24,000 bases of DNA from Geobacterales bacterium (GTDB lineage Bacteria > Desulfobacterota > Desulfuromonadia > Geobacterales > Pseudopelobacteraceae), in the NCBI GenBank assembly GCA_041738275.1, contig JBGSQD010000020.1, forward strand, positions 3,441-27,440. The letters are read 5' to 3'. The notes beneath the pieces were generated by a model, which saw only the letters and a program-made list of their open reading frames with translations, had not been told where the DNA came from and made no database searches. The position numbers and the translations under genes are program-made. Position 1 is the stretch's first letter; the number at the start of each line of letters is the position of its first letter. Positions 246-16,863 of the stretch are shown here, piece by piece.

Positions 246-291
246 GTCGTTTGTTCGCCCATAACTCAGATTGATATCCACTGGAGTTCTC

Positions 292-2760
292 ATGACGATC
301 AAAAGCAAACTCTACCTGATCATGGCGGTCACGGTTGTCGGTATCCTGGCAATCGGCGGCTCCAGCCTGATCGGTATGACGGTTGTTAAAGGCAAGCTCA
401 ATATCCTCACGGAGCGGTCAACTCCTTACCAGTTACAGACCATCGAGCTGCAGCGTGCCATACAGGAACATACCTCCGGCTTGATGAAGCTTTCCGTTGT
501 CCAGACCATGGCAGAATTTACCACAGTCAAGGGCGAGGTTGACAAATCAATGGAGACCGTGGCTTCAAAGGCCAAAGAGTTGGCTTCATTTACCGGTTCG
601 AATAGCTCTGCTGGTGTGGAGCAGCTTGCTACAATCACCAAGGAGATGATCGCGGTCACTGATTCGCGCCTGAAAGCTGAGGAAGCAGGGCGGGCAGCCG
701 ATCAGGTCATGAAGGGGAAGCTGCAGCAGATTGCCCAGAAGCTCCGCTCATTGGACAGTTCCATGCGAAAATCACAATCCGGTTCCATGACCCAGCTTTC
801 CGCTTCCAACCAGGGGGTAAAGAGGATCACCAAGAAACTGCGTGATGTCCAGAATGCCGGTAATGCCCTCAACGAGGTAAAACAGACGGTGCTGGAGGTT
901 GCGGCGGCCGACAGCAGAACCGGGGTCACCATTGCCACCAGCAAGTTCAACGCTTCCATCCGCAAGCTGGCCGGCAGTGAAATGGTCAAGGCCGACCCGA
1001 CAGCTGCCAAGCCGCTGCTGGAAGGGGTGACTGATGTCAAGGAACGCGTGACCGGGGCCGATGGTCTGATTCCTCAGAAGATCAGCCTGCTGGCCGTACC
1101 GGATGAGGAAAAGCGGAAGAAGTTCGCCCAGACCCTGGCCCAGACCAATCAGCGTATGTCCCAGATGACGGTGGTCATGGGAGATATAGTTGAGAAGGCG
1201 GGTGAAGATTTTGCTCAGGAAGACAGCCGGTTCGATGCTTCGTTGCAGGGTGCCGGCAGCGCCAGCAGTATTCTGGGCGTTTCCAGCCAACTGATTGCCG
1301 AAGGTTCCGAGATCAGCCGCCTGATCCGGGATATCTTTACCGCTTCCAACCCCAAGGAGCTTTCTGACATCAAAGAGGCCATGAATGCGGCTTTTAACAG
1401 GGCAGCAGCGTTGCAGGTAAAAGGGAACGGAAAAAAGGGCGGCAAAGATGCCGGTGCTGCTGCCGTGTCCGCTGTTATCGGTACACTGAACGATGTCAGG
1501 GGACAGCTGCTGGCAAAGTATGGGGTGGCTGAGACCATTGAACATCTGCTGGCCGTGAAGAAACAGTCTGCGGATTTGAGTGTAAAGCTGATGGAACTGC
1601 TCCAGGCTCAGCGCGAAGAAGGGAAGAAGGGCATGACCAGTGCCCAGGCCGAGCAGGAAAAGGCGGTCAAGTCGGTCAACAAGGTTTTTCGGACCAATAT
1701 CGCTACCGTATCTATTTTAGGGCTGTCGGTGTTGATCATTGGCGTGCTGCTGAGCGGTCTGGTATTGCGTTCCATCAGCAAGCCGATCACTGAATTGTCA
1801 CAAATGGCGGAACGTTTTGGTGGTGGTGACTTTTCCGGTCGGCTGGACGACAAGCGTAAGGACGAGTTCGGGGCATTGGCGGTACATTTTAATGCTGCCA
1901 CGGCAAAACTGGCAGAAATAACTCAGAGCCTGCGTTTGGCTATAACCGACCTTAACAGTGGCGCCCAGGATTTGGCAAGGGCCTCCGGCGACCTCTCTAC
2001 CGGAGCTGCAAGACAATCCAGCGAATCTACCCAGGCAGCCTCAGCCATGACCGAGATGGCGCAGACCATTGATGATGTCGCACGCAACGCTCATACTGCC
2101 GCTACAGAGTCCGGAAACGCATTACAACGGGCCACAACCGGCCGTGAGGTTGTGGAACGCACCGTTACCGGAATGGAGCAGATTGCCGCCTCGGTTCGTG
2201 ATGCCGCCGGGGTCATTGAGGCGTTGGGGGAAAGTTCGACCAAGATCGGCGATATCATCAGCACCATCAACGATATTGCCGACCAGACCAACCTGCTGGC
2301 CCTGAATGCAGCCATTGAAGCTGCCCGTGCCGGAGAAGCCGGTATGGGATTTGCCGTTGTGGCGGATGAGGTGCGCAGGCTTGCCCAGCAGACTGCTGAC
2401 GCAACCAAAGAGATCGCCTCAACTATCGGCCAGATCCAGAAGGACACCGAACGTTCCGTGGGCGCCATGCGTCAGGGGACCGTGAAGGTTAACGAAGGGA
2501 TCACCCTGGCCCATGAAGCCAACGAGTCTCTGAAGGCTATTGTAGAGGCATCCAGTCAGAGTGTTACGGTGGTTAATCAGATTGCCGTGGCAGCAGAAGA
2601 GCAGTCTGCGGTTGCAGGTCAGGTGTCACATGGTGTCGAGAAGATTGCATCCATCACAGTAGACGCCGAGGCCGCCGCCGCTAATATAAGCCGCTCGGCA
2701 GCTCATTTGAATCAACTTGCCGGGGAACTGGAACAGATGGCGTCCTGGTTCAAGGTCTAA
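292..2760 (+). CDS. Methyl-accepting chemotaxis protein (822 aa) with a large helical periplasmic ligand-binding region, HAMP domain and MA signalling domain
   Basis: ATG 292 is preceded by GGAG (283-286); the track start at 271 is a TTG without an SD. TM1 is near aa 10-35 and TM2 near aa 480-500. The highly conserved MCP hairpin [38 protein letters not shown] is present. Confidence 0.9.
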
Positions 2761-2877: not shown

Positions 2878-3765
2878 ATGGCCCGGATACTCACGTTATA
2901 TATTCTGCTGATTGTGGTGATGCTGTTACAGGTTCCTGTCTCAGCCGGAGTTGCCGAGCAGCCGAGCAAACCGGTTATCCGTTTTGGCGTTATCCCCCGT
3001 TACAACCCGGTGGTTATGTACAAGCGCTACCAGCCGATCATGGACTACCTTACCAAAAACACCCCCTACCACTTCGAGCTGAAGATCAGCCGCGACTACC
3101 CGGAGGCGGTGCGCTATCTCAAGGACGGTGTCACCCAGATCAGCTCCCTGGGGGATGTTACCTTTACCGAGGCCAGCACACTCTATGGCGCGATCCCGAT
3201 ACTGAAACCGCTCAATCAGGACGGGGTTCCCTATTACCGCTCCGCCATAATTGTGCCGAACCATTCGCCGTTAAAATCATTGAAGGACCTCAAGGATAAG
3301 ACGTTGGTATTCGGTTCTCCACACTCCACCTCGGGAAACCTTATCCCCCGTTACATGCTGTGGAACAGCGGCATCAAACTCCAGGATCTGGCCTTGTTCA
3401 CGAACCTCAAACACCATGACGCGGTGGCCAAGGCCGTTCTGAAGGGACAATACGACGCCGGTGCGGTCAAGGATGTGATCGCCAAAAAATACATGAATTA
3501 CGGATTGAGGGTTCTGGCCTATTCAGACCCTCTTCCCTCTGTCCCGTTCGTGGTCAGAAAAGAGGCCTCCCCCGAGTTCATCAAGGCCGTAAAACAGGCC
3601 CTGCTGAAGCTTGACCGCAACAATCCCGAACACAAAAAGATCATGGCCACCTGGGACGACGAGTTCAAATACGGATTTGCGGAGGCGAACTCCGATGACT
3701 ACCGGATGATCTTCGGTATGATCCGTAACATTCCCACCGGGTGCGGTATCGGGTGTCACCGATGA
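2878..3765 (+). CDS. Secreted PhnD-type (phosphonate/oxyanion) periplasmic binding protein, ArrX/AioX-like sensor component candidate
   Basis: Signal peptide MARILTLYILLIVVMLLQVPVSA. PhnD-like core (IRFGVIP...YYRSAIIV...GSPHSTSGNLIP...). The stop TGA overlaps the kinase ATG (ATGA at 3762-3765). Unusual C-terminal CGIGCHR tail. Confidence 0.8.
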   Translation: MARILTLYILLIVVMLLQVPVSAGVAEQPSKPVIRFGVIPRYNPVVMYKRYQPIMDYLTKNTPYHFELKISRDYPEAVRYLKDGVTQISSLGDVTFTEASTLYGAIPILKPLNQDGVPYYRSAIIVPNHSPLKSLKDLKDKTLVFGSPHSTSGNLIPRYMLWNSGIKLQDLALFTNLKHHDAVAKAVLKGQYDAGAVKDVIAKKYMNYGLRVLAYSDPLPSVPFVVRKEASPEFIKAVKQALLKLDRNNPEHKKIMATWDDEFKYGFAEANSDDYRMIFGMIRNIPTGCGIGCHR

Positions 3766-5234
3766 GGTTGCGCTATCTTGCCGGGATAAAAGGGAAGTTC
3801 GTGCTGGCAGCGGCGCTGATCGTGGCCATCTCCTCCATAATCTGGGGAACCTGGGCATGGCGCAACGAAAAACGGCTATTGTATGATCGCCTGGTAAGCA
3901 ACGCCCGCAGCATGGCGATCTCGCTCAGAACGCCGATTATCAACGCCCTTGTCTACGAGGAAATGGGAGTTATTGCCGAAGGCGGGCTTCTGGACAATTT
4001 TGTGGAAGAAATCGTGGCGAACAAGGATTTCCCGACCCTGTACGCCTTTGTGACCGACGACAAGGGCAAGGTGCTGGCCCACAACCGCTACATGGAATAT
4101 GGTCTTATCTATACGGATGATCTTACCCGGCAAGCCCTGTTTGGCGATTCATTCATATCCAGGACCGTCATCGATGCTGCATCGCAGGAGCATGTTCTCG
4201 ATATTGCCATGCCGTTGCGCATCTACGGCAAGAGCTGGGGGAGCCTCCGGGTTGGTTTCTCCATGAAGCCGCTTGAACGTGAGCTCTATCTGATGGGGGT
4301 CAAGGTCGTATCCTTCACGGCAATCTTTTTCCTTGCAGGTACGGTCCTGTTCTATTTTGTCGGGCAGACAATAACGCGGCCGATTCAGAATCTTGCCGAG
4401 GCAATGTCGGAACTCGACCCCCAGACGCTGACGGTTGATCTACCTGAGGCGAGGAATGACGAGATCGGACAGTTGCAGGAAAGTTTCAGCGGGATGCTGG
4501 ATCGGTTGCGGGCAAGCGAGAGCGAGCGCCAACAGGTCTTTTCCACCCTGGTCCAGAGTGAAAAGCTGGCCACCATCGGCAAGCTGGTGGCTGGCGTGGC
4601 CCATGAGGTCAACAATCCCCTCAACGCCATATCCAGCTCCATCTATTACCTGGAAAAGGAACCGTCGGAAAGTGTCGGAAAGCAGACCGCTCTCCTTAAA
4701 CAGGGCCTGGCGCGTATCCAGAAAATAGTCCAGCAGTTGAGCGATTTCAGCCGTGCGAGCAATCTGATCATGGAAGCGGTGCCGAGCGATTTGTTCTTTC
4801 AGGAGGCAGCAACATTTGGGGCCATGGCACTCAAAAAGAGGACAGTTTTTTTCAAATCTTTCGATAACTGTATCCCGCCGGCCACCGTGCGCATGGACAA
4901 GGCCAAGATGCATCAGGTCGTCCTGAACCTCCTGATGAACGCCGCCGACGCCTGCGGTACAAAGGGCGTGGTCCGCATTTCGGCGTCGGCCGATGACACT
5001 GACTATGTCATCACGGTAACGGACAATGGCGAGGGGATACCGGAAGAGATCCAGGGGCATATCTTCGAGATTTTTTTCAGCACCAAAAAGGCGGGCAAGG
5101 GTACCGGAATGGGGCTGGCCATCTGCAAGAACATCGTAGACATGCACAACGGTACCATCAGTGTGGCAAGCCGGACAGGAGAAACGATCTTTACCATCCG
5201 GATCCCGCTGGAAAACGAGGTTCAGACGGTATGA
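3762..5234 (+). CDS. Membrane sensor histidine kinase (periplasmic domain, HAMP, HisKA, HATPase_c), ArrS/AioS-like
   Basis: ATG 3762 forms a 4-nt ATGA overlap with the upstream stop. There are two TM segments flanking a ~150-aa periplasmic domain. H-box [13 protein letters not shown]-box LLMNAADA and G-boxes DNGEGI / GTGMGLAI are present. Confidence 0.85.
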
Positions 5235-6589
5235 TCAAGATACTGATTGTGGAGGATGACCCGCTGCTCTGGCAACCGCTGCAATATGCACTGCAGGGAG
5301 AGGGGTACGTAGTGCGGGTGGCCACGGATGGAGCAGAAGCACTGGCCGCCTCCGCCGAGGAGAGCTTTGACCTGCTGCTGGAGGATCTGCATCTCCCCGA
5401 CTCCAACGGTTTGGATATCATGCGTGAGATTACCATGCGCCATCCGGCCTGCAAGGTGCTGGTCATGACCGGCTATGCCACCATAGAAAATGCCGTCGAG
5501 GCCATGAAGATCGGTGCCTTCGATTTCATAACCAAACCGTTTCATCTGGAGCTGGTCTTCCTGAAGATCAGGCGAGTGATCGAATTCCGCGATATGGCAA
5601 ATCTCGTGGAATCGGCCGAATGCAGGAAGAGGAGTGTGATGACTCGCTGTCCGGATATGCGCAGGGTCATTGAGGTTGCGGAGACGGCAGCACCAACCGG
5701 GGCAACCGTCCTTCTCATGGGAGAGAGCGGCACCGGCAAGGAGGTGTTGGCTGACTATATTCAGGGGCAGAGTGCGGTAAAAGACAGGCCTTACATCAAG
5801 GTCAACTGTGCCGCCATTCCGGATTCGCTCTTCGAAAGCGAGCTGTTCGGCGCTGACAAGGGTGCCTACACCGGATCTGTGGCAGAGCGTATCGGGTATG
5901 TGGAGTCTGCCCATGGCGGGACTCTCTTCCTGGACGAAATCGCGGATATTCCCCTGCAAGTCCAGGGGAAGCTGTTGAGAGTACTGGAAAACGGCAGCTT
6001 CTACCGGGTTGGTGGGACCAGGCAACGGAGGTCCGACTTCCGGCTGATTGCCACCAGCAGCAGGGACCTTGCCGAGGCGGTACAGATGCGAATATTCAGG
6101 GAGGACCTGTATTACCGGGTCAATGTGATCGCCCTGACGATCCCGCCGTTGCGGCAGCGGAGGGAGGACATCCCGCTGCTCACGGCCCATTTCTTGAAAA
6201 AGCTGCAACTACCTGGCTGCAATGGGTCTATCACCCTGTCGTCCCAGGTACTGGACATCCTTTCTCTCTACGGTTATCCGGGCAATGTGCGCGAGTTGAG
6301 AAACATCCTGGAACATCTCTCCATGCTCTATCCGGGTGAAAAGATCAAACCGTCCCATCTCCCGGCCCATATGAGGGACTCTGCTTATATTGGCAACCTG
6401 TTCGAGACCTTTACCGTGGAGAAACCGCTTCGGGAGGCGACCCAGGAATTCGAGGCCCGCTACATTGAGAAGGTTCTCAGGGCGGCTGGAGGGAGCAAGA
6501 CCCATGCTGCTGCCCTGCTGGGTATCTCCCGCAAGGTGCTCTGGGAAAAATTGAACCGGATTGCATTCCTCGGCGAGAACAACTGCTGA
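5231..6589 (+). CDS. Sigma54-dependent (NtrC-family) response regulator: REC, AAA+ and Fis-type HTH
   Basis: ATGA overlap with the kinase stop (5231-5234). REC domain (KILIVEDD...LLLEDLHLPDSNG), Walker A GESGTGKE, sigma54-contact loop ESELFGADKGAYTGS, C-terminal HTH (KTHAAALLGISRKVLWEKL). Confidence 0.9.
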   Translation: MIKILIVEDDPLLWQPLQYALQGEGYVVRVATDGAEALAASAEESFDLLLEDLHLPDSNGLDIMREITMRHPACKVLVMTGYATIENAVEAMKIGAFDFITKPFHLELVFLKIRRVIEFRDMANLVESAECRKRSVMTRCPDMRRVIEVAETAAPTGATVLLMGESGTGKEVLADYIQGQSAVKDRPYIKVNCAAIPDSLFESELFGADKGAYTGSVAERIGYVESAHGGTLFLDEIADIPLQVQGKLLRVLENGSFYRVGGTRQRRSDFRLIATSSRDLAEAVQMRIFREDLYYRVNVIALTIPPLRQRREDIPLLTAHFLKKLQLPGCNGSITLSSQVLDILSLYGYPGNVRELRNILEHLSMLYPGEKIKPSHLPAHMRDSAYIGNLFETFTVEKPLREATQEFEARYIEKVLRAAGGSKTHAAALLGISRKVLWEKLNRIAFLGENNC

Positions 6590-6603
6590 ACCAGGACTCT
6601 GAC

Positions 6604-7524
6604 ATGAAACAAATGTATTTAACAATATTGGCGCTGCTGGTCCTGGTATGCATTTCCTGCAACCGCAAGGAACCGGTTCAGATAAGCATGAAGGCTGAGA
6701 CACCGGTCAGACAGCCGGTACCCCCTCAGGTTAAGGAGCCGTTGCGCATCGGTATGGGAGCCATGATTACCCCCAAGGAAGGCTATGTTTATTACCAACG
6801 GCTGCAGGCCTACATCGGCAAAAGGCTTGGCCGTACCGTGCAACTGGTGGACCGCGGCAACTATAAAGAGATGAATCGTCTCCTGGAAACTGGTGAGCTG
6901 GATGCGGCTTTTGTCTGTGCCGGGCCGTACGTGGAGGGGAAGGAAAAATTCGGCATGGAACTCCTGGCCATGCCGCTGGTCAAGGGGAAGCCGATTTACC
7001 GTTCATACATAATCGTTCGCAAAGATAGTCCTATCAAACAATTTGAGGATTTACGGGGCAAGGTGTTTGCATTTGCCGATCCCAAGTCCAATACCGGTAA
7101 ACTGGTGCCTACCTACATGCTTTCCAGGATGAACGAGACCCCGGACAGTTTCTTTGCCCACTATATCTTTACGTATGGCCACGATCAATCTATCCGGTCT
7201 GTGGCCGAGAGGCTGGTTGACGGGGCAGCCGTTGACAGCCTGATCTTGGACTATCTGGCTCAGAGGACGCCAGCGCTGATAAAAAATATTCGGATCATTG
7301 CCAAGTCCGGCCCTTACGGTATCCCGCCGGTGGTGGTCAGACCCGGACTCGACCCTGAACTCAAGAAGCAACTGAAAGACATTTTGTTGTCTGCGTCAGC
7401 AGATCCGGAAGGTAATGATATCCTGAAAGGGATGATGATTGACCGATTTGTTGAGGGCGATGACACGAACTATGACACCATCCGCCGGATAAACCGGTGG
7501 GTTGCCGAGTATCGAAAAGAATAA
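6604..7524 (+). CDS. Second PhnD-type periplasmic binding protein (secreted, possibly a lipoprotein), ArrX/AioX-like
   Basis: AGGA lies 7 nt upstream of the ATG. Signal sequence MKQMYLTILALLVLVCISC. PhnD-like core (LRIGMGAMITP...IYRSYIIV...ADPKSNTGKLVP...). It is only distantly similar to the first binding protein. Confidence 0.8.
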   Translation: MKQMYLTILALLVLVCISCNRKEPVQISMKAETPVRQPVPPQVKEPLRIGMGAMITPKEGYVYYQRLQAYIGKRLGRTVQLVDRGNYKEMNRLLETGELDAAFVCAGPYVEGKEKFGMELLAMPLVKGKPIYRSYIIVRKDSPIKQFEDLRGKVFAFADPKSNTGKLVPTYMLSRMNETPDSFFAHYIFTYGHDQSIRSVAERLVDGAAVDSLILDYLAQRTPALIKNIRIIAKSGPYGIPPVVVRPGLDPELKKQLKDILLSASADPEGNDILKGMMIDRFVEGDDTNYDTIRRINRWVAEYRKE

Positions 7525-7655
7525 AACCTCACCGTCAGAAATAATTAACTGATTTTGGTTGGATCCTCCTGCCAATTAATTACCCCCCCACCTTCACCAT
7601 CAGCGCCAAGAAATGCGGTCACCTTTCCAACGTATCTGTGGATAGGCTGCTCTAT

Positions 7656-7671
7656 TGGCAACATTCTTGTA
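7656..7671 (+). promoter_or_regulatory. Weak candidate sigma54 (-24/-12) promoter
   Basis: TGGCAA-N5-TTGTA has the correct GG to G spacing, but the -12 element is GT rather than GC. It is the best match in the 402-nt leader upstream of the cytochrome/arr operon, next to a sigma54 activator gene. Confidence 0.2.
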
Positions 7672-7926
7672 ATCATAATAATTAAGAGACATTTTGCCGG
7701 GTGCTATCTGAATTGACCGCCTGCATCCGGAAAGTTCGTCAAGGCAGCCGGAGGCACGAAACAAGGGCTTCGGTGCGATCGTCATCTTCCGAACGAAAAG
7801 CTTGCCGGGAAATTTGTTGACCGGAAGCCATGTCAATTGGCCGAGGGCGTTACGAAGTCGTAACAGATTCGCGAGTGCAGGCTGGAAGCCTACCCACGTA
7901 ACAACTTAATAAAGGGGATTGAAGCT

Positions 7927-9414
7927 GTGGATGAAAAAAGTAACGAGCCCGCTCGGATGGGGAAATTCAAAAAATGGCTGATTATTGTGCTGATTTTGCT
8001 GGTCGTGATCGTGGCTGGAGTGTTGGCCGTCCTTGTGGCAGCGGAAAAATACACGGGCCGGTCCGAGTTCTGCGGCTCGCAATGTCACATTATGAAGCCG
8101 AATTATGAAACATGGAAGAAGGACAAACACAGCAAACCTGACAAGGAAACCGGCAAGATCACCGGCTGTATAGACTGCCATTACAAACCAGGAGAAAAGC
8201 CAACCCCAAAAGCTAAATTCAGGGGCCTGGGCCAGCTTTTTTCCTATCTGGCCACTGGCGATAAAGAGGTACGCAAAAGACCGATAGTTAGCGATCTTAC
8301 CTGCACCACTGCCAAATGTCATCCTTTGGACAAGCTCCTGCCCAAGCCGATCGACTACAAAAAGAAGTATGTCACGGAATACAAGGAGAAACTCAAGCCG
8401 TTCACCCATAAGACCCATCTCGAAAAAAAGATCGATGGCCAGAAGCTCCAGTGCGCTTCCTGCCATCTGCACCAGTCGCGTGACAAGCATTTCGAGGTGC
8501 CGAAGGAGCTCTGTTTCATCTGTCATTTCCGAAGAACCACGGAAAACCAGGGACGTGCCAAGTGCAGCATATGTCACGAGATCCCGACAAAGGCCATGAA
8601 AGCCAAGAATGCCGAAGCAAGCAGCGAGGAAAAGGCAAAAAAACCGATAACCCATCAGGCACTGGAAAAAGGCAAGGTACCATGCAGCAGTTGCCACCTG
8701 GAGATGATTCGGGTCAGCAACAGGCTGAAGGCGGATTTCTGTCTTGAGTGCCACCATGATGCGTCACCGGAACTGCTTGCCAAGGGCGGCAACAGGACGC
8801 TGATGCATCAGGAGCATGTCAACAAACAGACAGCCCGTTGCCCCCAGTGCCATGAAACCGTGACCCACAAGAAGTACTCGTATCTTGATGCCGGGGTACA
8901 AAATTGCGATGTCTGCCATGCCAAGCCCCATACCTATACGAAGAAACTCCTGGAGGGAAAAGGTGCCCAGGGTATCAAGGAAAAATACCCGTCGCTCATG
9001 CATGCCTTTGGTGTCAACTGCGTTGCATGCCACAGCAAGGATGGCCGCGATGCCAAGGGGAACAAGGTCAAGAAGGGATCGGACAAGGCCTGTGCCGTGT
9101 GCCATAACAATGATCCTAGATACGGCAAGATGATCGTTCAGTGGGGGCAGGATATCAAGGATGCCCTGGCAGAAGCTAAAAAGGCGGAACAGGTGGCAGT
9201 GGAGGCCCTGCAACAGGCCAAGGGCAATATACCGGCCAAGACAAAGGCCAAGATGAATGCCGCCCAGGAAAACCTCAGGGTCGCCTCTGCCGGTGGCGGA
9301 GTTCACAACAAGAAATTTGCCATGTTGCTGATCGATATGGCGCAACAGGGATTCGAAGAGGTAGCTGCAGAAGTTATGGGAAATGCCCAGAAAGGAGAAA
9401 AGAATGAAAATTAA
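7927..9414 (+). CDS. Membrane-anchored multihaem c-type cytochrome (NapC/NirT/NrfH-like N-terminus), 12 haem-binding motifs
   Basis: GTG 7927 lies 8 nt after AGGGGA. One N-terminal TM helix (WLIIVLILLVVIVAGVLAVLVAA). Ten CXXCH motifs plus CGSQCH (CX3CH, nt 8071) and CTTAKCH (CX4CH, nt 8302). The first site is CH-I-M as in NrfH. Confidence 0.85.
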   Translation: MDEKSNEPARMGKFKKWLIIVLILLVVIVAGVLAVLVAAEKYTGRSEFCGSQCHIMKPNYETWKKDKHSKPDKETGKITGCIDCHYKPGEKPTPKAKFRGLGQLFSYLATGDKEVRKRPIVSDLTCTTAKCHPLDKLLPKPIDYKKKYVTEYKEKLKPFTHKTHLEKKIDGQKLQCASCHLHQSRDKHFEVPKELCFICHFRRTTENQGRAKCSICHEIPTKAMKAKNAEASSEEKAKKPITHQALEKGKVPCSSCHLEMIRVSNRLKADFCLECHHDASPELLAKGGNRTLMHQEHVNKQTARCPQCHETVTHKKYSYLDAGVQNCDVCHAKPHTYTKKLLEGKGAQGIKEKYPSLMHAFGVNCVACHSKDGRDAKGNKVKKGSDKACAVCHNNDPRYGKMIVQWGQDIKDALAEAKKAEQVAVEALQQAKGNIPAKTKAKMNAAQENLRVASAGGGVHNKKFAMLLIDMAQQGFEEVAAEVMGNAQKGEKNEN

Positions 9415-11962
9415 CAGAAGGGATTTTTTGAAGGCATCGCTGGCGGCTGGGGTAATCGTAACCCTTGACGGCCCCTTGTTTAACGCCCTGACCTTTGCCG
9501 CAGCGGAGGGAGGAGTGAAGCCGGGTAACTGGATGCCATCGACCTGTCAGGGATGCACCGCCTGGTGTCCGGTGGAATTTTTCGTTCAGGATGGCCGGAT
9601 CGCCAAGGTGCGAGGCAACCAGCTCAGCAAGGCCAACAGCGGCTTCTGCTGTCCAAGGGGCCATCTGATGGTCCAACAGGCCTATGACCCTGACCGGATC
9701 AAGGTGCCCATGAAGCGCACCAATCCAGCCAAGGGTCGCGGTATTGACCCAAAATTCGTCCCCATAACCTGGGATGAAGCGCTGGACACCATAGCCGACC
9801 AGATGCTGGCGTTGCGCAAGGCCAACGAGCCGGAAAAATTCATGTACATGCGCGGCCGCTATTCTCCCACCTCCACCGAGCTGCTTTACGGAACCCTGCC
9901 CAAGATCTACGGCACCCCCAACTACTTCTCCCACAGCGCTATCTGCGCCGAGGCCGAGAAGATGGGGCCGGGGCTTACCCAGGGTTTTTTCGGCTACCGC
10001 GACTACGACCTGGCCAAGACCACCTGTCTGGTGGTATGGGGATGTGATCCGCTCAGTTCCAACCGCCAGGTGCCCAACACCATCAACAAGTTTGGCGATA
10101 TCCTTGATCGGGGCAGTGTTATCTGTGTTGACCCACGTCTCTCAACTGCCGCTGCCAAGGCGACCGAGTGGCTTCCCATCAAGCCGGGCGAGGATGGCGC
10201 CCTGGCATCAGCTCTTGCCCACGTCATCATGACCGATGGGATGTGGAGCAAGGAATTCGTAGGCGATTTCAAGGAAGGCAAGAACCTCTTCAAGAGCGGC
10301 GCTGTCGTTGATGAGGCTGCCTTTGTGGAGAAGCAGACCCATGGTGTGGTCAAGTGGTGGAATATCGAACTGAAGGACAAGACCCCGGCCTGGGCCGCCA
10401 AGATCACCCTGATTCCGGAGGAGCAGATTATGCGTGTGGCCCGTGCCATGGGCAAGGCTGGATCAAAGACAGCTGTCTGGATGGGCCCGGGGGTTGCCAT
10501 GACTCCGCGTGGTACCTATGCCGGCATGGCGGTGTATGCCCTGAACGGTCTCCTCGGCTCCATCGAAACCGAGGGGGGGGTGTTCCAGAGTTCCAGCGCT
10601 CCGGTAGAGAAATTCCCGAAACCCGACGCGTTTATCGATGAACTGGCCAAACACCACGGCCACGGCAAAAAGATCGATGGTCGCGGCGCCAAGGACATGC
10701 CGGCCATGATGAACGCCAAGCCGGGCAGCGGCGTGGTCACCAATAACGTGGCCAACGCCCTGCTGAAGGATCCGGAATCCATCAAGGTATTCCTCAGCAC
10801 CTGGAGTAACTTTGTCTTTTCAGGCACCGGCACGCAGCGTTGGGAAAAGGCCATGGCAAAGATGCCTTTCTTTGCCCATGTGGTTACCAATGCCTCGGAG
10901 ATGACCCAGTATGCTGACATCGTCCTGCCGGCCACCTTCGGTCCGGCTGAAAAACTTTCGATCATCACCAATATGGCCAATCTGCACGGCCATATGTCGA
11001 TCCAGCAGCCGGTGATCAAGCCGCTCTGGCAGGCCAAGGCAGAGGAGACCGAGGTGATGTGGCTCCTGGCCGAGAAGCTCAAGGCCAAAGGTTTTGCCAA
11101 TCTTTATGAGTACTACGCCTCCTTCGAGGATCCTGAAAACAAGAAGAAGCCGACCAATGCCGCGGAGTTTGCCGAGATTGCCGCCAAGATCTCCAGCCAG
11201 AAGGTCTGGAACGGCAAGGAAAAGATGAAGGGGGATCAGATTGCCGGCTGGGAAGATTTCAGGAAAAAGGGCATTTACAACACCGAAACCTATAAATACA
11301 AGAAGAACTGGGGCAAGGACAACCCCGAGACCAAGAAGTTCGAAGGGCATTTCAAGACCGAGACGAAGAAGTTCGAATTCTACAGCGAGACCATGAAGAA
11401 GGGGCTTGCCGAACATGCCAAGAAGCATAATACCACCATCGATGACATCCTTAAGGTAAGCGGCTACGAGGCCCAGGGCGAACTGGCCTTTGTGCCGCAC
11501 TATGAGTCGCCCAAACGCCATGGCAGCGAAGCGGAATATCCCTTCACCTTCATTGACCACAAGTCGCGCCTCAACCGCGAAGGGCGCAGCGCCAACACCC
11601 CCTGGTACCAGGAGTTCAAGAAGGTTGATGTGGGTGACAAGAGTTGGGACGATGTGGCCAAGATCAATCCGCTGGATGCCAAAAAGCTGGGGATCAAGGA
11701 TGGCGACAAGATCCGCCTGACCTCCACCACCGGAACTATCGTCACCAAGGCCAGGTTGTGGGAGGGTGTACGACAAGGCACGGTGGCAAAGTGTTACGGC
11801 CAGGGACACTGGGCCTACGGCCGGGTGGCTGCCAAGGATTACGCCAAGGCTCAAGCACGCGGCGCCAACAATAACGAGCTTCTGGTCGACGACTATGATC
11901 GTTTGAGCGGCGCCACTGCCCGCAATGGCGGCTTTACCGGCGTCAAGATCGAGAAGGCATAG
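9404..11962 (+). CDS. arrA: Respiratory arsenate reductase catalytic subunit (Mo-bisPGD enzyme, Tat-exported)
   Basis: AGGAGA lies 6 nt before ATG 9404. Tat motif RRDFLK. CQGCTAWC-X26-CC [4Fe-4S] motif. RGRY (9851-9862) and HSAICAEAEK (9932-9961) match my recollection of Arr active-site motifs. Confidence 0.8.
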   Translation: MKINRRDFLKASLAAGVIVTLDGPLFNALTFAAAEGGVKPGNWMPSTCQGCTAWCPVEFFVQDGRIAKVRGNQLSKANSGFCCPRGHLMVQQAYDPDRIKVPMKRTNPAKGRGIDPKFVPITWDEALDTIADQMLALRKANEPEKFMYMRGRYSPTSTELLYGTLPKIYGTPNYFSHSAICAEAEKMGPGLTQGFFGYRDYDLAKTTCLVVWGCDPLSSNRQVPNTINKFGDILDRGSVICVDPRLSTAAAKATEWLPIKPGEDGALASALAHVIMTDGMWSKEFVGDFKEGKNLFKSGAVVDEAAFVEKQTHGVVKWWNIELKDKTPAWAAKITLIPEEQIMRVARAMGKAGSKTAVWMGPGVAMTPRGTYAGMAVYALNGLLGSIETEGGVFQSSSAPVEKFPKPDAFIDELAKHHGHGKKIDGRGAKDMPAMMNAKPGSGVVTNNVANALLKDPESIKVFLSTWSNFVFSGTGTQRWEKAMAKMPFFAHVVTNASEMTQYADIVLPATFGPAEKLSIITNMANLHGHMSIQQPVIKPLWQAKAEETEVMWLLAEKLKAKGFANLYEYYASFEDPENKKKPTNAAEFAEIAAKISSQKVWNGKEKMKGDQIAGWEDFRKKGIYNTETYKYKKNWGKDNPETKKFEGHFKTETKKFEFYSETMKKGLAEHAKKHNTTIDDILKVSGYEAQGELAFVPHYESPKRHGSEAEYPFTFIDHKSRLNREGRSANTPWYQEFKKVDVGDKSWDDVAKINPLDAKKLGIKDGDKIRLTSTTGTIVTKARLWEGVRQGTVAKCYGQGHWAYGRVAAKDYAKAQARGANNNELLVDDYDRLSGATARNGGFTGVKIEKA

Positions 11963-11980: not shown

Positions 11981-12811
11981 ATGTCAAAACAATATGGAAT
12001 GGTTATAGATATGCAGAAATGTGTGGGTTGCGGGGCTTGTGCCCTGGCCTGCAAGACCGAAAACAGCACCCAGGGGAGAAATCGTGGGCAAACCTTCAAC
12101 TGGGCGGACTTTCTCATCAAAGAGGATGGGAAATTCCCCAATGCCCGCACCGAAACCATTCCTACCCGGTGCAACCACTGCACCGATCCGGAATGCATCA
12201 AAGGCTGCCCGAAACCGCAGGCGTTGTACAAATCGGAAGAAGGCCTCACACTGTTCAATCACAAATACTGTATCCAGTGCAAAAAATGCCAGGAAAAATG
12301 CCCATACAGCGCCAAGGATGTGGACAAGGAACACGTTCAATACAGCGTCATCAGCTATAACGAGGTAGGTGTCGAAATCAACGAGTTTTACAAGGACAAG
12401 TCAGAGATGATCAAAGGCTGTACTGCATCCGGAGCAGAGGTGACAAAGGCTGCGGGAACAACCCCCCCCAACAGGAATGAGTATGCATTCAAGGACACCA
12501 GGAACCCGCGCGATCCAAAGGTGACCCGCGGTAAGGGGGAAATGAGGGATGTGCGATCGGGCGGATGGGTCGAAAAATGCACCTTCTGCGTCCACCGGAT
12601 CAGAAACAACGAAGAACCGTACTGTGTCGTTGCCTGTCCGGCCAAGGCCCGCATTGCGGGCGACATCAATGACCCTGCCAGTGATGTGAGCAAGCTGATC
12701 AAGAAATACAAGGCGGTACATCTGAAGAACAACAAGGGTGAGTACCTTAAAGAAGGCGAGAAGGGTACCCAGCCTAATAATTATTACATCAGGGACTATA
12801 AGAAGGTGTAA
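11981..12811 (+). CDS. arrB: Arsenate reductase 4x[4Fe-4S] electron-transfer subunit
   Basis: Four Cys groups are present: CVGCGACALAC, CNHCTDPECIKGCP, CIQCKKCQEKCP and CTFC...CVVACP. This is the typical DMSO-reductase-family beta subunit position, directly after arrA. Confidence 0.8.
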   Translation: MSKQYGMVIDMQKCVGCGACALACKTENSTQGRNRGQTFNWADFLIKEDGKFPNARTETIPTRCNHCTDPECIKGCPKPQALYKSEEGLTLFNHKYCIQCKKCQEKCPYSAKDVDKEHVQYSVISYNEVGVEINEFYKDKSEMIKGCTASGAEVTKAAGTTPPNRNEYAFKDTRNPRDPKVTRGKGEMRDVRSGGWVEKCTFCVHRIRNNEEPYCVVACPAKARIAGDINDPASDVSKLIKKYKAVHLKNNKGEYLKEGEKGTQPNNYYIRDYKKV

Positions 12812-12898: not shown

Positions 12899-13546
12899 AT
12901 GCAAAAGGATGAATTTGCCGTACAGGAGTTGATGAGAGGAGAATGCTATCGCTTTCTAGCCGCATGCTTCTATCTGCCGAAAAAGGAGCTGTTTGCCGCA
13001 GAAAACCTTCTCGCCAATCTCACTCTGAGCCTGCAGGATATCTGCCCTGACGCCGCACCCTTTTCCCGGAAAATGGAAGAGAGCTTTGCCAGGTATACAG
13101 AAGAGGAACTTGCCGTGGAATACGCACGGCTCTTCGTGGGACCTTTCGGGCTGAAGGCGCCGCCATACGGATCCATCTATCTTGACAATGACCGTACTGT
13201 CATGGGACCTTCCACCATGGAGACCATAAGCTTCTACGAGAAAGAGGGGCTTGCCAGGGACGTTGAGTTCAATGAGCTTCCGGACCATATCGCAGTGGAG
13301 CTGGAGTTCATGTATTTTCTCATTTACAAAGAAGTTGAGGCGTTGAAAAAGGGAGATTTGGAACTGGCAAAGGAGTATTTTAATAAACAGGATGATTTTT
13401 GCTCTCGCTTCCTTGGTAAATGGGTTCCAAAATTTTGCGGGGAGATTAAAGAGGGGACTGAAAACGGTTTCTACAGTGCCTTGGCAGACTGCGTTACCGC
13501 ATTTGTTCAGGCGCCGGCATTAGCACAGGTGAATTCCGTTTCGTAG
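12899..13546 (+). CDS. arrD: TorD/DmsD-family redox-enzyme maturation chaperone
   Basis: Cytoplasmic 215-aa protein with a TorD-like signature (EYARLFVGPFGLKAPPYGSIYLD ... LPDHIAVELEFM), encoded last in the Mo-enzyme operon. Confidence 0.7.
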   Translation: MQKDEFAVQELMRGECYRFLAACFYLPKKELFAAENLLANLTLSLQDICPDAAPFSRKMEESFARYTEEELAVEYARLFVGPFGLKAPPYGSIYLDNDRTVMGPSTMETISFYEKEGLARDVEFNELPDHIAVELEFMYFLIYKEVEALKKGDLELAKEYFNKQDDFCSRFLGKWVPKFCGEIKEGTENGFYSALADCVTAFVQAPALAQVNSVS

Positions 13547-13663: not shown

Positions 13664-14710
13664 CTAACTGACGAACCACCTGCGTTGAAACCAGAACGCA
13701 ACATTCACCAGCCCGATCATGACCGGCACCTCCACCAATGGGCCGATAACCGCAGCAAAGGCCGCGCCGGAATTGAGTCCAAAAACTGCAATCGCCACGG
13801 CAATAGCCAATTCAAAGTTGTTACTGGCCGCGGTAAAGGCCAGGGTAGTGGTCTTGCTGTAGTCGGCCCCCATCTTTTTACCCATCCAGAATGAAACCAG
13901 AAACATGACGATAAAGTAGATCCCCAGCGGGATGGCAATGCGCACCACGTCCAGCGGCAGCTGCACAATCAGATTACCCTTCAGGCTGAACATGACCACG
14001 ATGGTAAACAGCAGGGCAATCAGTGTCATCGGGCCGATCTTCGGCACAAACTCCCGGTGATAGCGTTCCTTGCCCATGAGCTTCACGCCGATGAAACGGG
14101 TCAGCGCCCCGGCGATGCAGGGGATGCCCAGGTAGATGAAGACGCTCTCGGCAATCTGGCGGATGCTGACATCCACGATCACCCCTTTGAGACCAACCAG
14201 CGGCGGCAGAACGGTGATGAAGAACCAGGCGTAGACGCTGTAGAACAGCACCTGGAAAATGCTGTTGAAGGCCACCAGCCCGGCGGCGTATTCGGTGTTG
14301 CCCTTGGCCAGTTCGTTCCAGACGATCACCATGGCGATACAGCGCGCCAGGCCGATCATGATCAGACCCACCATATACTCCGGTTTGTCCGGCAGCAGCA
14401 GCGCTGCCAGCACGAACATCAACACCGGCCCGATCAGCCAGTTCTGGATCAGCGAGATACCGAGGATTTTCTTGTTCTGAAAAACCTCCGGCATATCCTC
14501 GTACTTCACCTTGGCAAAGGGGGGGTACATCATCAGGATCAGGCCGACGGCGATAGGGATATTGGTGGTGCCTACCTGGAAGGAGTTGATAAAGGCTTCC
14601 GTGCCGGGGACGAAATAGCCGAGACCGACGCCCAGGGCCATGGCGGCGAAGATCCAGAGGGTCAGCCAGCGGTCGAGGAAGGAGAGTTTACGGGAAACGT
14701 GTTCGGACAT
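13664..14710 (-). CDS. acr3: Arsenite efflux permease, ACR3 family
   Basis: 348-aa polytopic membrane protein. The N-terminus [25 protein letters not shown] and overall pattern are typical of ACR3. GAGGTG lies 4 nt before the ATG. Confidence 0.9.
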
Positions 14711-14736
14711 GGTTCACCTCAGTGATCTGAAAGTGA

Positions 14737-14768
14737 GGATATTATATCCGCTTTTACGGATACATCAA
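14737..14768 (-). promoter_or_regulatory. Candidate internal sigma70 promoter with a palindrome over the -10, in the arsR-acr3 spacer
   Basis: Minus strand reads TTGATG (14768-14763), 16 nt, TATAAT (14746-14741). The perfect palindrome GGATAT-T-ATATCC (14737-14749) covers the -10. Confidence 0.3.
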
Positions 14769-14775
14769 GTCAAAA

Positions 14776-15123
14776 TCAGGAACACCCTGCGGGTTTGTCT
14801 TTCAGGAAGGCCGCAAGCATACGGCGGTCGGATGCTGCTTCGGGAAGGTTGGCGGCATGCTGTTTGAGGATATGGAGCAGTTCATTGCAGATAACGCAGC
14901 TTTCCTGGCTGATAGAATAGTGCATCCAGACCCCCTGGCGGCGGATATCAACCCAGCAACTGCGCTTGAGGTAGGCCAGGTGGCGCGATACGGTGGATTG
15001 GGGTAGACCCAGCACGGCCATGAGGTCGCAGACGCACAGTTCCCCCTCGGCCTGCAACAGCAGGATGATGCGCAGGCGGATCGGGTCGGAAAGGGCTTTT
15101 ATGGTTTGGGCGAGATGTTTCAT
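14776..15123 (-). CDS. arsR: ArsR/SmtB-family metalloregulator (As(III)-type)
   Basis: wHTH with the ELCVCDL metalloid-binding motif and PQSTVSRHLAYLK recognition helix. Additional Cys residues (CVIC, C-terminal GCS). Located upstream of acr3. Confidence 0.9.
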   Translation of the reverse strand: MKHLAQTIKALSDPIRLRIILLLQAEGELCVCDLMAVLGLPQSTVSRHLAYLKRSCWVDIRRQGVWMHYSISQESCVICNELLHILKQHAANLPEAASDRRMLAAFLKDKPAGCS

Positions 15124-15204
15124 GTAAGACCTATTACTCCTGCAAGGTGCCGCTATTTTTCGAAGTTATCCTGACTCACCATTTACCAAATGAAGCATGA
15201 CATG

Positions 15205-15235
15205 ACATTAGGTGTTTTAACAAATTTTGTCAAAA
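15205..15235 (-). promoter_or_regulatory. Candidate arsR promoter with overlapping inverted repeat (operator candidate)
   Basis: Minus strand reads TTGACA (15233-15228), 17 nt, TAATGT (15210-15205). The inverted repeat TTTTAACAAA-T-TTTGTCAAAA (15215-15235, 1 mismatch) covers the -35 and spacer. Confidence 0.4.
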
Positions 15236-15268
15236 CTGATTTGGAATTTGGGTGGGTGTAAAGAGTGA

Positions 15269-15284
15269 CAATATGATAATATTG
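15269..15284 (+). promoter_or_regulatory. Palindrome CAATAT-GATA-ATATTG containing an extended -10-like TGaTAATAT, upstream of hgcA
   Basis: Perfect 6-bp arms. TG-N-TAATAT lies at 15274-15282, about 35 nt upstream of ATG 15319. Confidence 0.3.
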
Positions 15285-15318
15285 CAAGCTGCGAATATGT
15301 GGTGGTTGGAGACATGTA

Positions 15319-15423
15319 ATGAAAATCCAGAAAATCAGAATGGCAAATGAAGCGGAAAAGAAAAAGGTTACCGCCGTGCGCCGTCGCGCCCACGCTACTG
15401 AACCGGATAAGCCACCCTGCTGA
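15319..15423 (+). other. 34-codon ORF ending in TGC-TGA, in frame with hgcA: either an N-terminal extension of hgcA via UGA recoding or a leader peptide
   Basis: ATG 15319 lies 6 nt after GGAGA. It reads MKIQKIRMANEAEKKKVTAVRRRAHATEPDKPPC-TGA and then continues in the hgcA frame with no canonical start codon until GTG 15508. Confidence 0.35.
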
Positions 15424-15507
15424 GGCCCTCCCACCTCTGCCGGCGGCGGAGAAATAAGCGAGAAGGTTCCAGGTTTCCTGGGGTGGCTGCAAACCGAAGC
15501 TGGGCAG

Positions 15508-16473
15508 GTGGCGCGAGTGTCCACGGAACTCGCCTTTGCCGACCGGCTTGGGGCCTGCAAGGCGCGCTGGGGCATTGGGCGGATGAACTTCATGGTTCCG
15601 CCCGGGCTTTATGCCATAGGAAATCCCGGACCTGCTGATCAGGTGGTTGTTACCGCCAATTACAAGATGAGCTACGACATTGTGCGCAGCAGTTTGGCCG
15701 GGCGCAATGTCTGGCTGCTGGTGCTTGAAACCTATGGAATAAATGTCTGGTGCGCAGCGGGTAAGGGGACCTTCGGCACGGACGAGCTGGTGCGCCGGAT
15801 CGCAGCCAGCGGACTGGCGCAGGTGGTCAGCCATCGACGCCTGCTGCTGCCGATACTCGGAGCGCCCGGCGTGTCGGCACACAAGGTTGCCCGGCGCAGC
15901 GGATTCAACATCAGCTACGCCGCCATCAGGGCCGATGACCTGCCTGAATACCTGGATAACGGTATGGCCACCACACCTGATATGCGGGAGTTGACCTTCA
16001 CCTTTTACGAGCGGCTGGTGCTGATCCCGGTGGAACTGGTACTGGCGCTGAAGTCGATTGCCCTGGGGGGCTTCGGGCTTTTCCTGCTGTTTTACGTTTC
16101 GAGCACCCCCATGGCGGGACTTACCGCCTTCCTCGCCTGGTTTGGCGCTTCATTGACCGGAAATGTTGTTGGACCGCTCCTGCTTCCCTGGCTCCCTGGG
16201 CGCAGTTTTGCCGTGAAAGGGGCCGTGGCTGGATTGGCATGGGTCGCGCTGTTCTATCTGCTGGCCGGAGGATCCGGCTGGAACCGGTGGGCGACTGTTG
16301 CCGCATTTCTGGTGCTTCCTGCCGTGAGCGCCTTCTTCACACTTAATTTCACCGGCTGTTCCCCCTATACCTCCCGTTCAGGAGTGAAAAAGGAGATGGC
16401 TATCGCCCTGCCGTCCATGGGCGGCGCTATTGTCATGGGTCTTCTGATGCTGCTGGCGAGCCGTTTCCTGTAA
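15508..16473 (+). CDS. hgcA: Mercury methylation corrinoid protein HgcA (the start may lie upstream; see findings)
   Basis: The diagnostic cap-helix motif NVWCAAGK is at nt 15742-15765. The N-terminal corrinoid-binding domain is followed by a C-terminal multi-TM domain, and hgcB follows 19 nt downstream. Confidence 0.9.
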   Translation: MARVSTELAFADRLGACKARWGIGRMNFMVPPGLYAIGNPGPADQVVVTANYKMSYDIVRSSLAGRNVWLLVLETYGINVWCAAGKGTFGTDELVRRIAASGLAQVVSHRRLLLPILGAPGVSAHKVARRSGFNISYAAIRADDLPEYLDNGMATTPDMRELTFTFYERLVLIPVELVLALKSIALGGFGLFLLFYVSSTPMAGLTAFLAWFGASLTGNVVGPLLLPWLPGRSFAVKGAVAGLAWVALFYLLAGGSGWNRWATVAAFLVLPAVSAFFTLNFTGCSPYTSRSGVKKEMAIALPSMGGAIVMGLLMLLASRFL

Positions 16474-16492
16474 TCAATGAAGGAGTGATATT

Positions 16493-16786
16493 TTGAAAGG
16501 TTTCAGATATTTGAAGTCAGTAGCCACCCTGAAGCTTGATCAGGCCGTCTGCATCGGCTGCGGCAGGTGCCTGGAGGTCTGTCCGCATCAGGTATTCTCT
16601 CTGACGGGAAAAAAGGCCGCCATCACGGACCTGAACGCCTGTATGGAGTGCGGGGCCTGTGCGCTCAACTGCCCGGTCAAGGCGATTGCCGTGGACTCCG
16701 GTGTCGGTTGCGCCACAGGGCTGATCAACGAATGGTTGCAGGAGCGGAAGCTGGTTAAGGTTGGGAGCGGGAGTTGCTGTTCCTGA
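16493..16786 (+). CDS. hgcB: Mercury methylation 2[4Fe-4S] ferredoxin HgcB
   Basis: TTG start 7 nt after AGGAG. MKGFRYL... N-terminus, two CX2CX2CX3CP motifs, a conserved Cys at position 73 and a C-terminal Cys-Cys (..GSGSCCS). Confidence 0.9.
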   Translation: MKGFRYLKSVATLKLDQAVCIGCGRCLEVCPHQVFSLTGKKAAITDLNACMECGACALNCPVKAIAVDSGVGCATGLINEWLQERKLVKVGSGSCCS

Positions 16787-16849
16787 TCTTTGCCGAAGTG
16801 GTGAAATCGAGAGATCGGGAAAAGTTTTATGCTTTTTATATGAGCATGC

Positions 16850-16863
16850 TCATTTTTATGTTG
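16850..16863. promoter_or_regulatory. Perfect 14-bp palindrome ATGAGCATGCTCAT (TetR operator candidate 1)
   Basis: The sequence is self-complementary. It sits in a TTTTATA...TTTTTA context upstream of the TetR gene. Confidence 0.5.

Follow-up and report, generated by a model that had tools for sequence, protein, structure and literature searches.

In Pseudodesulfovibrio mercurii ND132 a co-transcribed ArsR gives arsenic-responsive control of the mercury-methylation genes hgcAB (Gionfriddo et al., bioRxiv 10.1101/2022.10.17.512643). Co-location of hgcAB with acr3, arsC, arsM and arsR has been reported in passages of two further papers (McDaniel et al. 2020, PMC7438021, Fig. 6; Zhang et al. 2023, PMC10349881), and in Shewanella sp. 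ANA-3 ArsR is cited as controlling both the arr and the ars operons (Murphy and Saltikov 2009, via PMC7438021). We analyzed a 24-kb stretch of a Geobacteraceae genome (contig JBGSQD010000020.1; "the window" means this whole stretch), in which hgcAB stand divergent from arsR-acr3, and arsR-acr3 in turn convergent on genes for respiratory arsenate reductase (Arr). The predicted operator of this ArsR was found at the acr3 promoter and not in the spacer facing hgcA, where a sequence was found that we read as the remains of a marR gene since lost. We lean towards the view that in the window hgcAB are expressed independently of ArsR and that it is their physical linkage to the arsenic genes that has been selected.

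The likeness to arsR2-hgcA-hgcB of ND132 consists in an ArsR-family gene adjoining hgcAB and in the proposed link of arsenic to mercury methylation; the preliminary description of the window is right that an ArsR-like regulator co-oriented with hgcAB has been implicated in their control in ND132. However, arsR of ND132 is co-transcribed with hgcAB, has no other ars genes nearby and belongs to a regulator clade found only in Desulfovibrionaceae, whereas the window arsR is divergent, belongs to the subfamily of acr3/arr islands and has no operator before hgcA. The methylators of McDaniel et al. and Zhang et al. also have acr3 and arsR a few genes from hgcAB; the passages concerned mention no respiratory arrAB operon, operator or acr3-hgcA overlap, unlike the loci of this work. 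An island of Geobacter sp. is described as combining arsR, acr3 and arrAB. Its gene order differs and the passage on it does not mention hgcAB, while the window has no arsDA and carries a sensor module and a cytochrome gene before arrA. Relatives of the window resemble Shewanella ANA-3, as summarized in the citing paper, in having one ArsR operator type before acr3 and before arrA or the phnD-histidine kinase (HK)-response regulator (RR) operon. The window differs from this in having the operator at the acr3 promoter only, and both the operator sequence and the sigma-54 module are Geobacteraceae-specific.

The spacer between arsR and hgcA depends on where hgcA begins. The core of HgcA (15508-16473) matches NF040863 with 454 bits against a cutoff of 275, over profile positions 1-324 of 325, and the NVWCAAGK cap-helix motif pointed out in the preliminary description, which holds the cobalt-ligand Cys, is invariant in 23 homologues. 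Many of the homologues, however, are 384-397 residues long, with a Cys-rich N-terminal extension preceding the corrinoid domain, which carries NVWCAAGK, and the membrane domain. The extension can be read in frame in the window as MKIQKIR...DKPPCUGPPTSAGGG from the ATG at 15319, with a GGAGA ribosome-binding site ahead of it. By comparison with the homologues we therefore place the start of hgcA at this ATG and not at the GTG at 15508. Consequently, the spacer is 195 bp (15124-15318); the gap of 384 bp given earlier counts to the internal GTG, while the divergent arrangement stands. The corrected gene model changes the region in which a promoter should be sought.

The extension contains an in-frame UGA, which aligns with the second Cys of PPCCG in the Cys-type homologues. 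This column holds TGA in 19 other Geobacterales-type loci and TGC or TGT in six (Cys in L005, L007, L011, L012, L017 and L020). A hairpin resembling a selenocysteine insertion sequence (SECIS) follows the UGA; over 20 loci 96.4% of its cells are paired, two pairs are changed on both sides, and none of 500 shuffles reached its score. It is degraded in the Cys-type hgcA loci. The possibility that the TGA at 15421 is a nonsense mutation with a restart at GTG 15508 was ruled out by the shared TGA/Cys column, the covarying hairpin and the published case. A selenoprotein HgcA with an N-terminal CU motif has already been described (Haft and Gwadz, bioRxiv 10.1101/2022.07.06.499078); extension, CU motif and single UGA recur in the window hgcA and nothing essential differs. 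Judged by its sequence the window gene is thus this published form and as such not new. The present work adds, for the Geobacterales clade, the hairpin downstream of the UGA and the covariation within it.

HgcB scores 127 bits against NF040864 (cutoff 99) and has two CX2CX2CX3C motifs (CIGCGRC..C and CMECGAC..C) together with Cys73. Its C-terminus is CCS, so that the Cys pair said to be terminal is present, with one Ser after it.

The survey of relatives covered 80 genome loci centred on hgcA, 80 metagenome loci centred on ArsR and several contigs retrieved through exact proteins; of the at least 600 hits in each scan, the top 80 were taken. The window ArsR has the fold expected (HTH_5, E = 6.5e-15; NF033788, 88 bits against a cutoff of 55; matches to the SmtB and CadC structures), and its alpha-3 Cys pair, in ELCVCDLM, is kept in orthologues. 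Where R773 has its third Cys (Cys37), the window protein has Met. The protein is thus an As(III)-type ArsR by motif and profile, as had been proposed; orthologues 67-94% identical to it occur in L006, L011, L085, L087, L090 and L149. In relatives, the sequences upstream of arsR and of acr3 have the palindrome TATCCG-N6-CGGATA in common, which we take as the operator of this ArsR subfamily, and there it falls between a TTGAT(A/G) -35 and a TATAAT -10. A weight matrix built from the relatives' sites alone, which themselves score 17.6-36.2, gave 29.9 at 14742-14765 of the window and 12.6 at the next-best site (14721). The former is the sole window match to the core pattern, even with two mismatches allowed. 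It lies inside the acr3 promoter found by a scan independent of the operator search, and L085 and L011 have the same layout there (TTGATA-16-TATAAT). ArsR is predicted to repress acr3 by occupying this palindrome, and As(III) bound to the Cys pair would, by analogy with the family, release it.

The operator was also found at ars promoters of L006, L011, L013, L014 and L021 and in L085, L094, L098, L104, L123, L127, L138, L143, L145, L146 and L149. In L021, which is Geomonas paludis Red736, the order is operator-arsR-operator-hgcA, and the operator is located 29-52 bp upstream of hgcA. It stands before either arrA or the phnD-HK-RR operon in L085 (4386), L086 (1368), L087 (3225), L094 (5931), L098 (4335), L104 (5870), L123 (5901), L127 (2012), L138 (5941), L145 (3761) and L146 (1670), which implies, as far as predicted sites can, that ArsR controls arsenate respiration in these relatives. 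The matrix scan detected no operator upstream of the window's own arr sensor operon, and a coupling of ArsR to arr is accordingly not visible in the window sequence.

The preliminary description had placed a control region shared by arsR and hgcA between the two genes, with an ArsR site in it. Such a site is absent. The best matrix score anywhere in 15110-15335 is -1.0 (the 99.9th percentile of window positions), and the matching arsR-hgcA or arsR-marR spacers of L090, L149, L106 and L122 contain no operator either. The position giving this score, 15277-15300, was considered as a degenerate ArsR site and rejected: it is not conserved in L090, the 94%-identical relative, and aligns with a marR 3' end. 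An AT-rich repeat resembling a Fur box (15267-15282) was judged too weak. At the exact centre of the spacer, which as a whole is 90% identical to that of L090, there is a palindrome of 23 bp; a possible minus-strand promoter of arsR (TTGACA-17-TAATGT) overlaps it.

Traces of a different regulator lie in the part of the spacer nearest to hgcA. In 15 Geobacterales-type loci (L001, L003, L005, L006, L008, L009, L010, L016, L017, L081, L082, L083, L088, L106 and L122) a gene for a Cys-rich MarR stands immediately upstream of hgcA in the same orientation, giving marR-hgcA-hgcB; a MarR-family gene in this position is mentioned in one sentence of the literature for Geobacter daltonii. Among these loci, L003 is that of Pelotalea chapellei DSM 13688. 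The protein (e.g. L081:9325-9792) has ACCDxCCGE at the N-terminus and IACC[N/K] at the C-terminus. Loci of this type carry two TTGCA-N3-TGCAA boxes, one forming the -35 of the marR promoter and the second being encoded by the final codons of marR, either 22-23 nt ahead of the hgcA start or overlapping with it. In the window, ATTGCAAGCTGCGAATAT at 15281-15298 aligns with ATTGCATGTTGCAAGTAA of L088 and L081 and ends 20 nt before the hgcA ATG. The core box within it (15282-15294) matches 9 of 10 core positions and ends 24 nt before hgcA, the corresponding distances being 23 nt in L081 and 22 nt in L088. Between the window and L090 no part of the spacer has changed faster, and in L090 the element has decayed further. 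No marR was found in the 24-kb window by tblastn. From its alignment, we take the element to be the scar left by a marR gene now lost.

Because the spacer has no ArsR operator and yet retains a decaying marR remnant, hgcAB of the window most likely descend from a marR-hgcA-hgcB unit such as most relatives have. They would have lost their own repressor, and their expression would now be constitutive or under an unassigned factor. Several points weigh against expression independent of ArsR. In L090 the arsR-hgcA junction is kept while the acr3 side is replaced, which could tie arsR functionally to hgcAB, and in ND132 it is a different ArsR that controls hgcAB (bioRxiv 10.1101/2022.10.17.512643). 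ArsR could bind a non-canonical site, and the central 23-bp palindrome has no factor assigned to it. The operator assignment itself is comparative. Finally, no sigma-70 promoter for hgcA passed the promoter scan of the spacer, so that regulation of hgcAB remains a matter of inference.

The relatives show other arrangements of arsR and hgcA. In six loci (L011, L013, L085, L143, L145 and L146) arsR, operator and acr3-hgcA-hgcB follow on one strand, and in five of them the acr3 stop overlaps the hgcA start (GTGA/ATGA): L011:1954-1957, L085:10915-10918 (reverse), L145:5608-5611, L146:3517-3520 and L013:9785-9788. The overlap occurs in hgcA lineages of both the Cys and the Sec type. In these five loci, of which L013 is from a Geomonas, hgcA is, on the evidence of gene layout, translationally coupled to acr3 behind an ArsR operator. 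L021 and many Firmicutes have arsR-hgcA on one strand. Taking co-transcription or an upstream operator as the mark of ArsR control, we found it in the five overlap loci and in L021; it is missing in the window, where hgcA lies on the other strand from arsR and acr3 and no operator stands in the spacer. As part of the ArsR-controlled acr3 operon, hgcAB would be induced by As(III) in the operon-type relatives, and such control in the sister acr3-hgcA loci is well supported by their sequences. The earlier proposal that As(III) produced by Arr de-represses both acr3 and hgcAB thus fits the operon-type relatives and is not supported for the window. Coupling through ArsR is expected in the former and not in the divergent type.

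The window arrangement, with arsR directly facing hgcA, is shared by L149 (67-68% amino-acid identity) and by L090, in which ArsR, HgcA, HgcB and TetR are 94-97% identical; in L106, L122 and L006 (one inserted gene in the last) arsR faces marR-hgcAB. In L090, the closest relative, convergent atpG and atpA follow arsR in place of acr3/arr (6001-8688), and L087 has the same atpAG-arsR junction with its arr cluster on the opposite side (1-1359). The presence of atpAG beside arsR in both indicates that arsR marks a rearrangement junction.

The arr genes stand beside hgcAB in three architectures, those of the window, of L085 and of L088/L089. In L085 arsP-arsR2-hgcB-hgcA-acr3-arsR is divergent from phnD-HK-RR-cytochrome-arrAB, and identity to the window is 91% for ArrA, 90% for Acr3 and 64% for HgcA. 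In L088/L089 the order is cytochrome-arrABD-phnD-HK-marR-hgcAB on a single strand (ArrA 79% and HgcA 76% identical to the window). Linkage of hgcAB to arsenic genes is therefore recurrent, involves different hgcA lineages and exceeds chance. The survey of synteny asked for in the preliminary description shows conservation in relatives, in that the arsR-hgcA junction is kept in L090 and L149 and many further loci tie hgcAB to arr or to this ArsR subfamily.

The reading under which the locus was originally described, namely that ArsR binds the shared spacer, represses both divergent promoters and is released from them by As(III) made by Arr, we consider unlikely for the window, although for the family as a whole such coupling is plausible. 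It accords with the divergent junction in L090 and L149, the former keeping it though atpAG replaces acr3/arr, with the control of hgcAB operons by the same ArsR subfamily in L011, L085, L145 and L146, with the operator close before hgcA in L021 and with the experimental precedent in ND132. What speaks against it is the spacer itself: its best score of -1.0 compares with at least 17.6 for every site from which the matrix was built, its best candidate is lost in L090 and better explained by the marR relic, and four other divergent loci are equally without an operator. Expression independent of ArsR is the reading we retain here.

Less likely still is the absence of any functional link, with hgcAB a mobile two-gene cassette that hitch-hikes beside a rearrangement-prone arsenic island. 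The flanks of hgcAB do differ completely among the close relatives L081, L082, L083, L088, L090 and the window, arsR marks a point of rearrangement, and HgcA of L085 is far more distant from that of the window than are its ArrA and Acr3. Against this, Cys-type and Sec-type hgcA lineages have each independently been fused to acr3 through an overlapping stop and start, arr and hgcAB have come together in three different ways, and 11 of 83 hgcA-centred loci have acr3 no more than about 10 kb from hgcA, a share far above the 1% roughly expected for a genome. Control of hgcAB in trans by a marR copy elsewhere, binding the residual box, is improbable: the box has a good core match at the homologous distance from hgcA, but it is strongly decayed in L090, the window has no marR, and chance alone would produce about one match with one mismatch in each window.

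Table 1. Features of the 24-kb window, with positions counted from its first letter.
Feature	Position	Strand	Basis or remark
Methyl-accepting chemotaxis protein	271-2760		Co-directional with arr block
PhnD-like periplasmic binding protein	2878-3765	+	Pfam/NCBIfam
sCache/HAMP histidine kinase	3741-5234	+	Pfam/NCBIfam
Sigma-54 response regulator	5231-6589	+	Pfam/NCBIfam
Second PhnD-like protein	6604-7524	+	Pfam/NCBIfam
Multihaem c-type cytochrome, membrane-anchored	7927-9414	+	NapC/NirT-type N-terminus, 10 CXXCH
ArrA, respiratory arsenate reductase catalytic subunit	9383-11962	+	Tat signal
ArrB, iron-sulfur subunit	11981-12811	+	NF041715 best match, Fer4_11 domain
ArrD, TorD/DmsD-type chaperone	12899-13546	+	PF02613, E = 1.8e-33
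Acr3 arsenite efflux permease	13664-14710	-	TIGR00832, 453 bits (cutoff 283)
Predicted acr3 promoter, TTGATG-16-TATAAT	14741-14768	-	Promoter scan, 10/12 positions
Predicted ArsR operator, TATCCG-N6-CGGATA	14742-14765		Exact palindrome between acr3 -35 and -10
ArsR repressor, 115 residues, ELCVCDL	14776-15123	-	HTH_5, NF033788
arsR-hgcA spacer, no ArsR operator	15124-15318		195 bp; matrix scan
23-bp palindrome GTTTTAACAAATTTTGTCAAAAC	15212-15234		Exact spacer centre; perfect in L090, L091, L108
Putative relic of marR 3' end with MarR box TTGCAAGCTGCGA	15282-15294	+	Consensus TTGCA-N3-TGCAA
hgcA, predicted selenoprotein form	15319-16473	+	384 codons including UGA at codon 35
In-frame UGA, predicted selenocysteine (CU motif, TGC-TGA)	15421-15423	+	Homologue alignment
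SECIS-like hairpin, 7-bp stem, 3-nt loop	15435-15451	+	Starts 11 nt past UGA
hgcB, ferredoxin	16493-16786	+	NF040864

Open reading frames of the window were called in six frames and then subjected to profile searches (Pfam, NCBIfam). As shown in Table 1, a sensor module, a multihaem cytochrome gene and arrABD on the plus strand are met by convergent acr3 and arsR on the minus strand, from which hgcA and hgcB diverge. All genes named in the preliminary description were found where it had put them, and profile and motif evidence agrees with the names. Beyond hgcB, on its 3' side, come tetR, genes for an ABC1 kinase and a MacB-type ABC transporter, and a LolA-like gene. The palindrome TATGAGCATGCTCAT at 16836-16859, upstream of tetR (16917), is by its position probably the TetR operator. 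The hgcAB pair therefore marks the edge of the arsenic island and not its interior; that it adjoins the island holds, and only the term "embedded" does not. An Rfam scan of the window detected no riboswitch or other RNA family, and hence no cobalamin riboswitch before hgcA.

ArrA scores 1018 bits against NF041714. This is below the cutoff of 1600, yet NF041714 is the best family by far, PhsA following at 280. Alignment to the solved ArrA of Shewanella ANA-3 (6CZ7) gave 891 bits over the full length (residues 47-858), the next family in the window protein comparisons having 154-280 bits, and the two proteins agree exactly in the RGRY and H-S-x-x-C-A-E-A-x-K segments. For these reasons the window protein is treated, on sequence grounds, as a true Arr despite its profile score. 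The aligned segments would hold the Mo-ligand Cys and the arsenate-pocket residues, with the roles reportedly assigned by Glasser et al. 2018. The true ArrA start is likely at 9404, since the database copy has 852 residues. The homologue search returned many ArrA homologues at 80-91% identity; these Geobacteraceae proteins, by implication also under the NCBIfam ArrA cutoff, bear in the database only the label molybdopterin oxidoreductase. ArrB has NF041715 as its top match with 198 bits, below the cutoff of 450. With the twin-arginine (Tat) motif RRDFLK in ArrA, and with ArrB, the TorD-like chaperone and the NapC/NirT-type cytochrome, the operon set is complete, in agreement with the earlier account of a complete respiratory operon convergent with arsR-acr3; no ArrC was found in the window's arr operon. 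The multihaem cytochrome, whose position directly upstream of arrA is conserved in relatives, is the likely electron donor from quinol to Arr. The closest homologues of both HgcA and ArrA come from genomes and metagenome bins of Geobacteraceae and Desulfuromonadales.

The four genes at 2878-7524 form a putative arsenic sensor module, and the same PhnD/HK/sigma-54/PhnD module precedes cytochrome-arrAB in L085, L086, L087, L098, L104 and L138. Together with the chemotaxis receptor they recall the layout of the AioXSR/ArxXSR arsenite-sensing systems. By gene order and analogy with AioXSR, the PhnD-like protein, histidine kinase and sigma-54 regulator would switch on cytochrome-arrABD. Inspection by eye for a sigma-54 promoter before the cytochrome gene gave no clear one, the best candidate being TGGCAA-N5-TTGTA near 7652.

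Co-location of ars genes with hgcAB, control of hgcAB by an ArsR and the Sec form of hgcA are already published. Full-text literature searches returned no report of hgcAB beside arrAB, and adjacency to respiratory arrAB in three architectures appears to be new. The same holds for the acr3-hgcA operon with its translational coupling and a defined operator in front, for the map of operator sites, which for the divergent layout speaks against direct control by ArsR, and for the marR scar.

The control of hgcAB and their native function are standing questions in mercury biogeochemistry. Arsenic respiration and mercury methylation are encoded together in this one organism, and paddy soils and aquifers with arsenate-respiring Geobacter are also sites of methylmercury formation. 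It is possible, and we put it forward tentatively, that HgcAB are a working part of Geobacteraceae arsenic metabolism with a native role involving As(III), and that the window is an uncoupled derivative. If so, HgcAB would have been recruited repeatedly into ArsR-operated acr3 operons and, in three architectures, beside arrAB; their native role would involve As(III), for example in corrinoid- or SAM-dependent (S-adenosylmethionine) handling of arsenite; and arsenate respiration would directly raise methylmercury output in operon-type strains. A defined operator and three architectures (operon, divergent and MarR type) make the coupling of arsenic to mercury directly testable: arsenic is predicted to induce hgcAB in operon-type strains and to do so weakly or not at all in strains of the window type.

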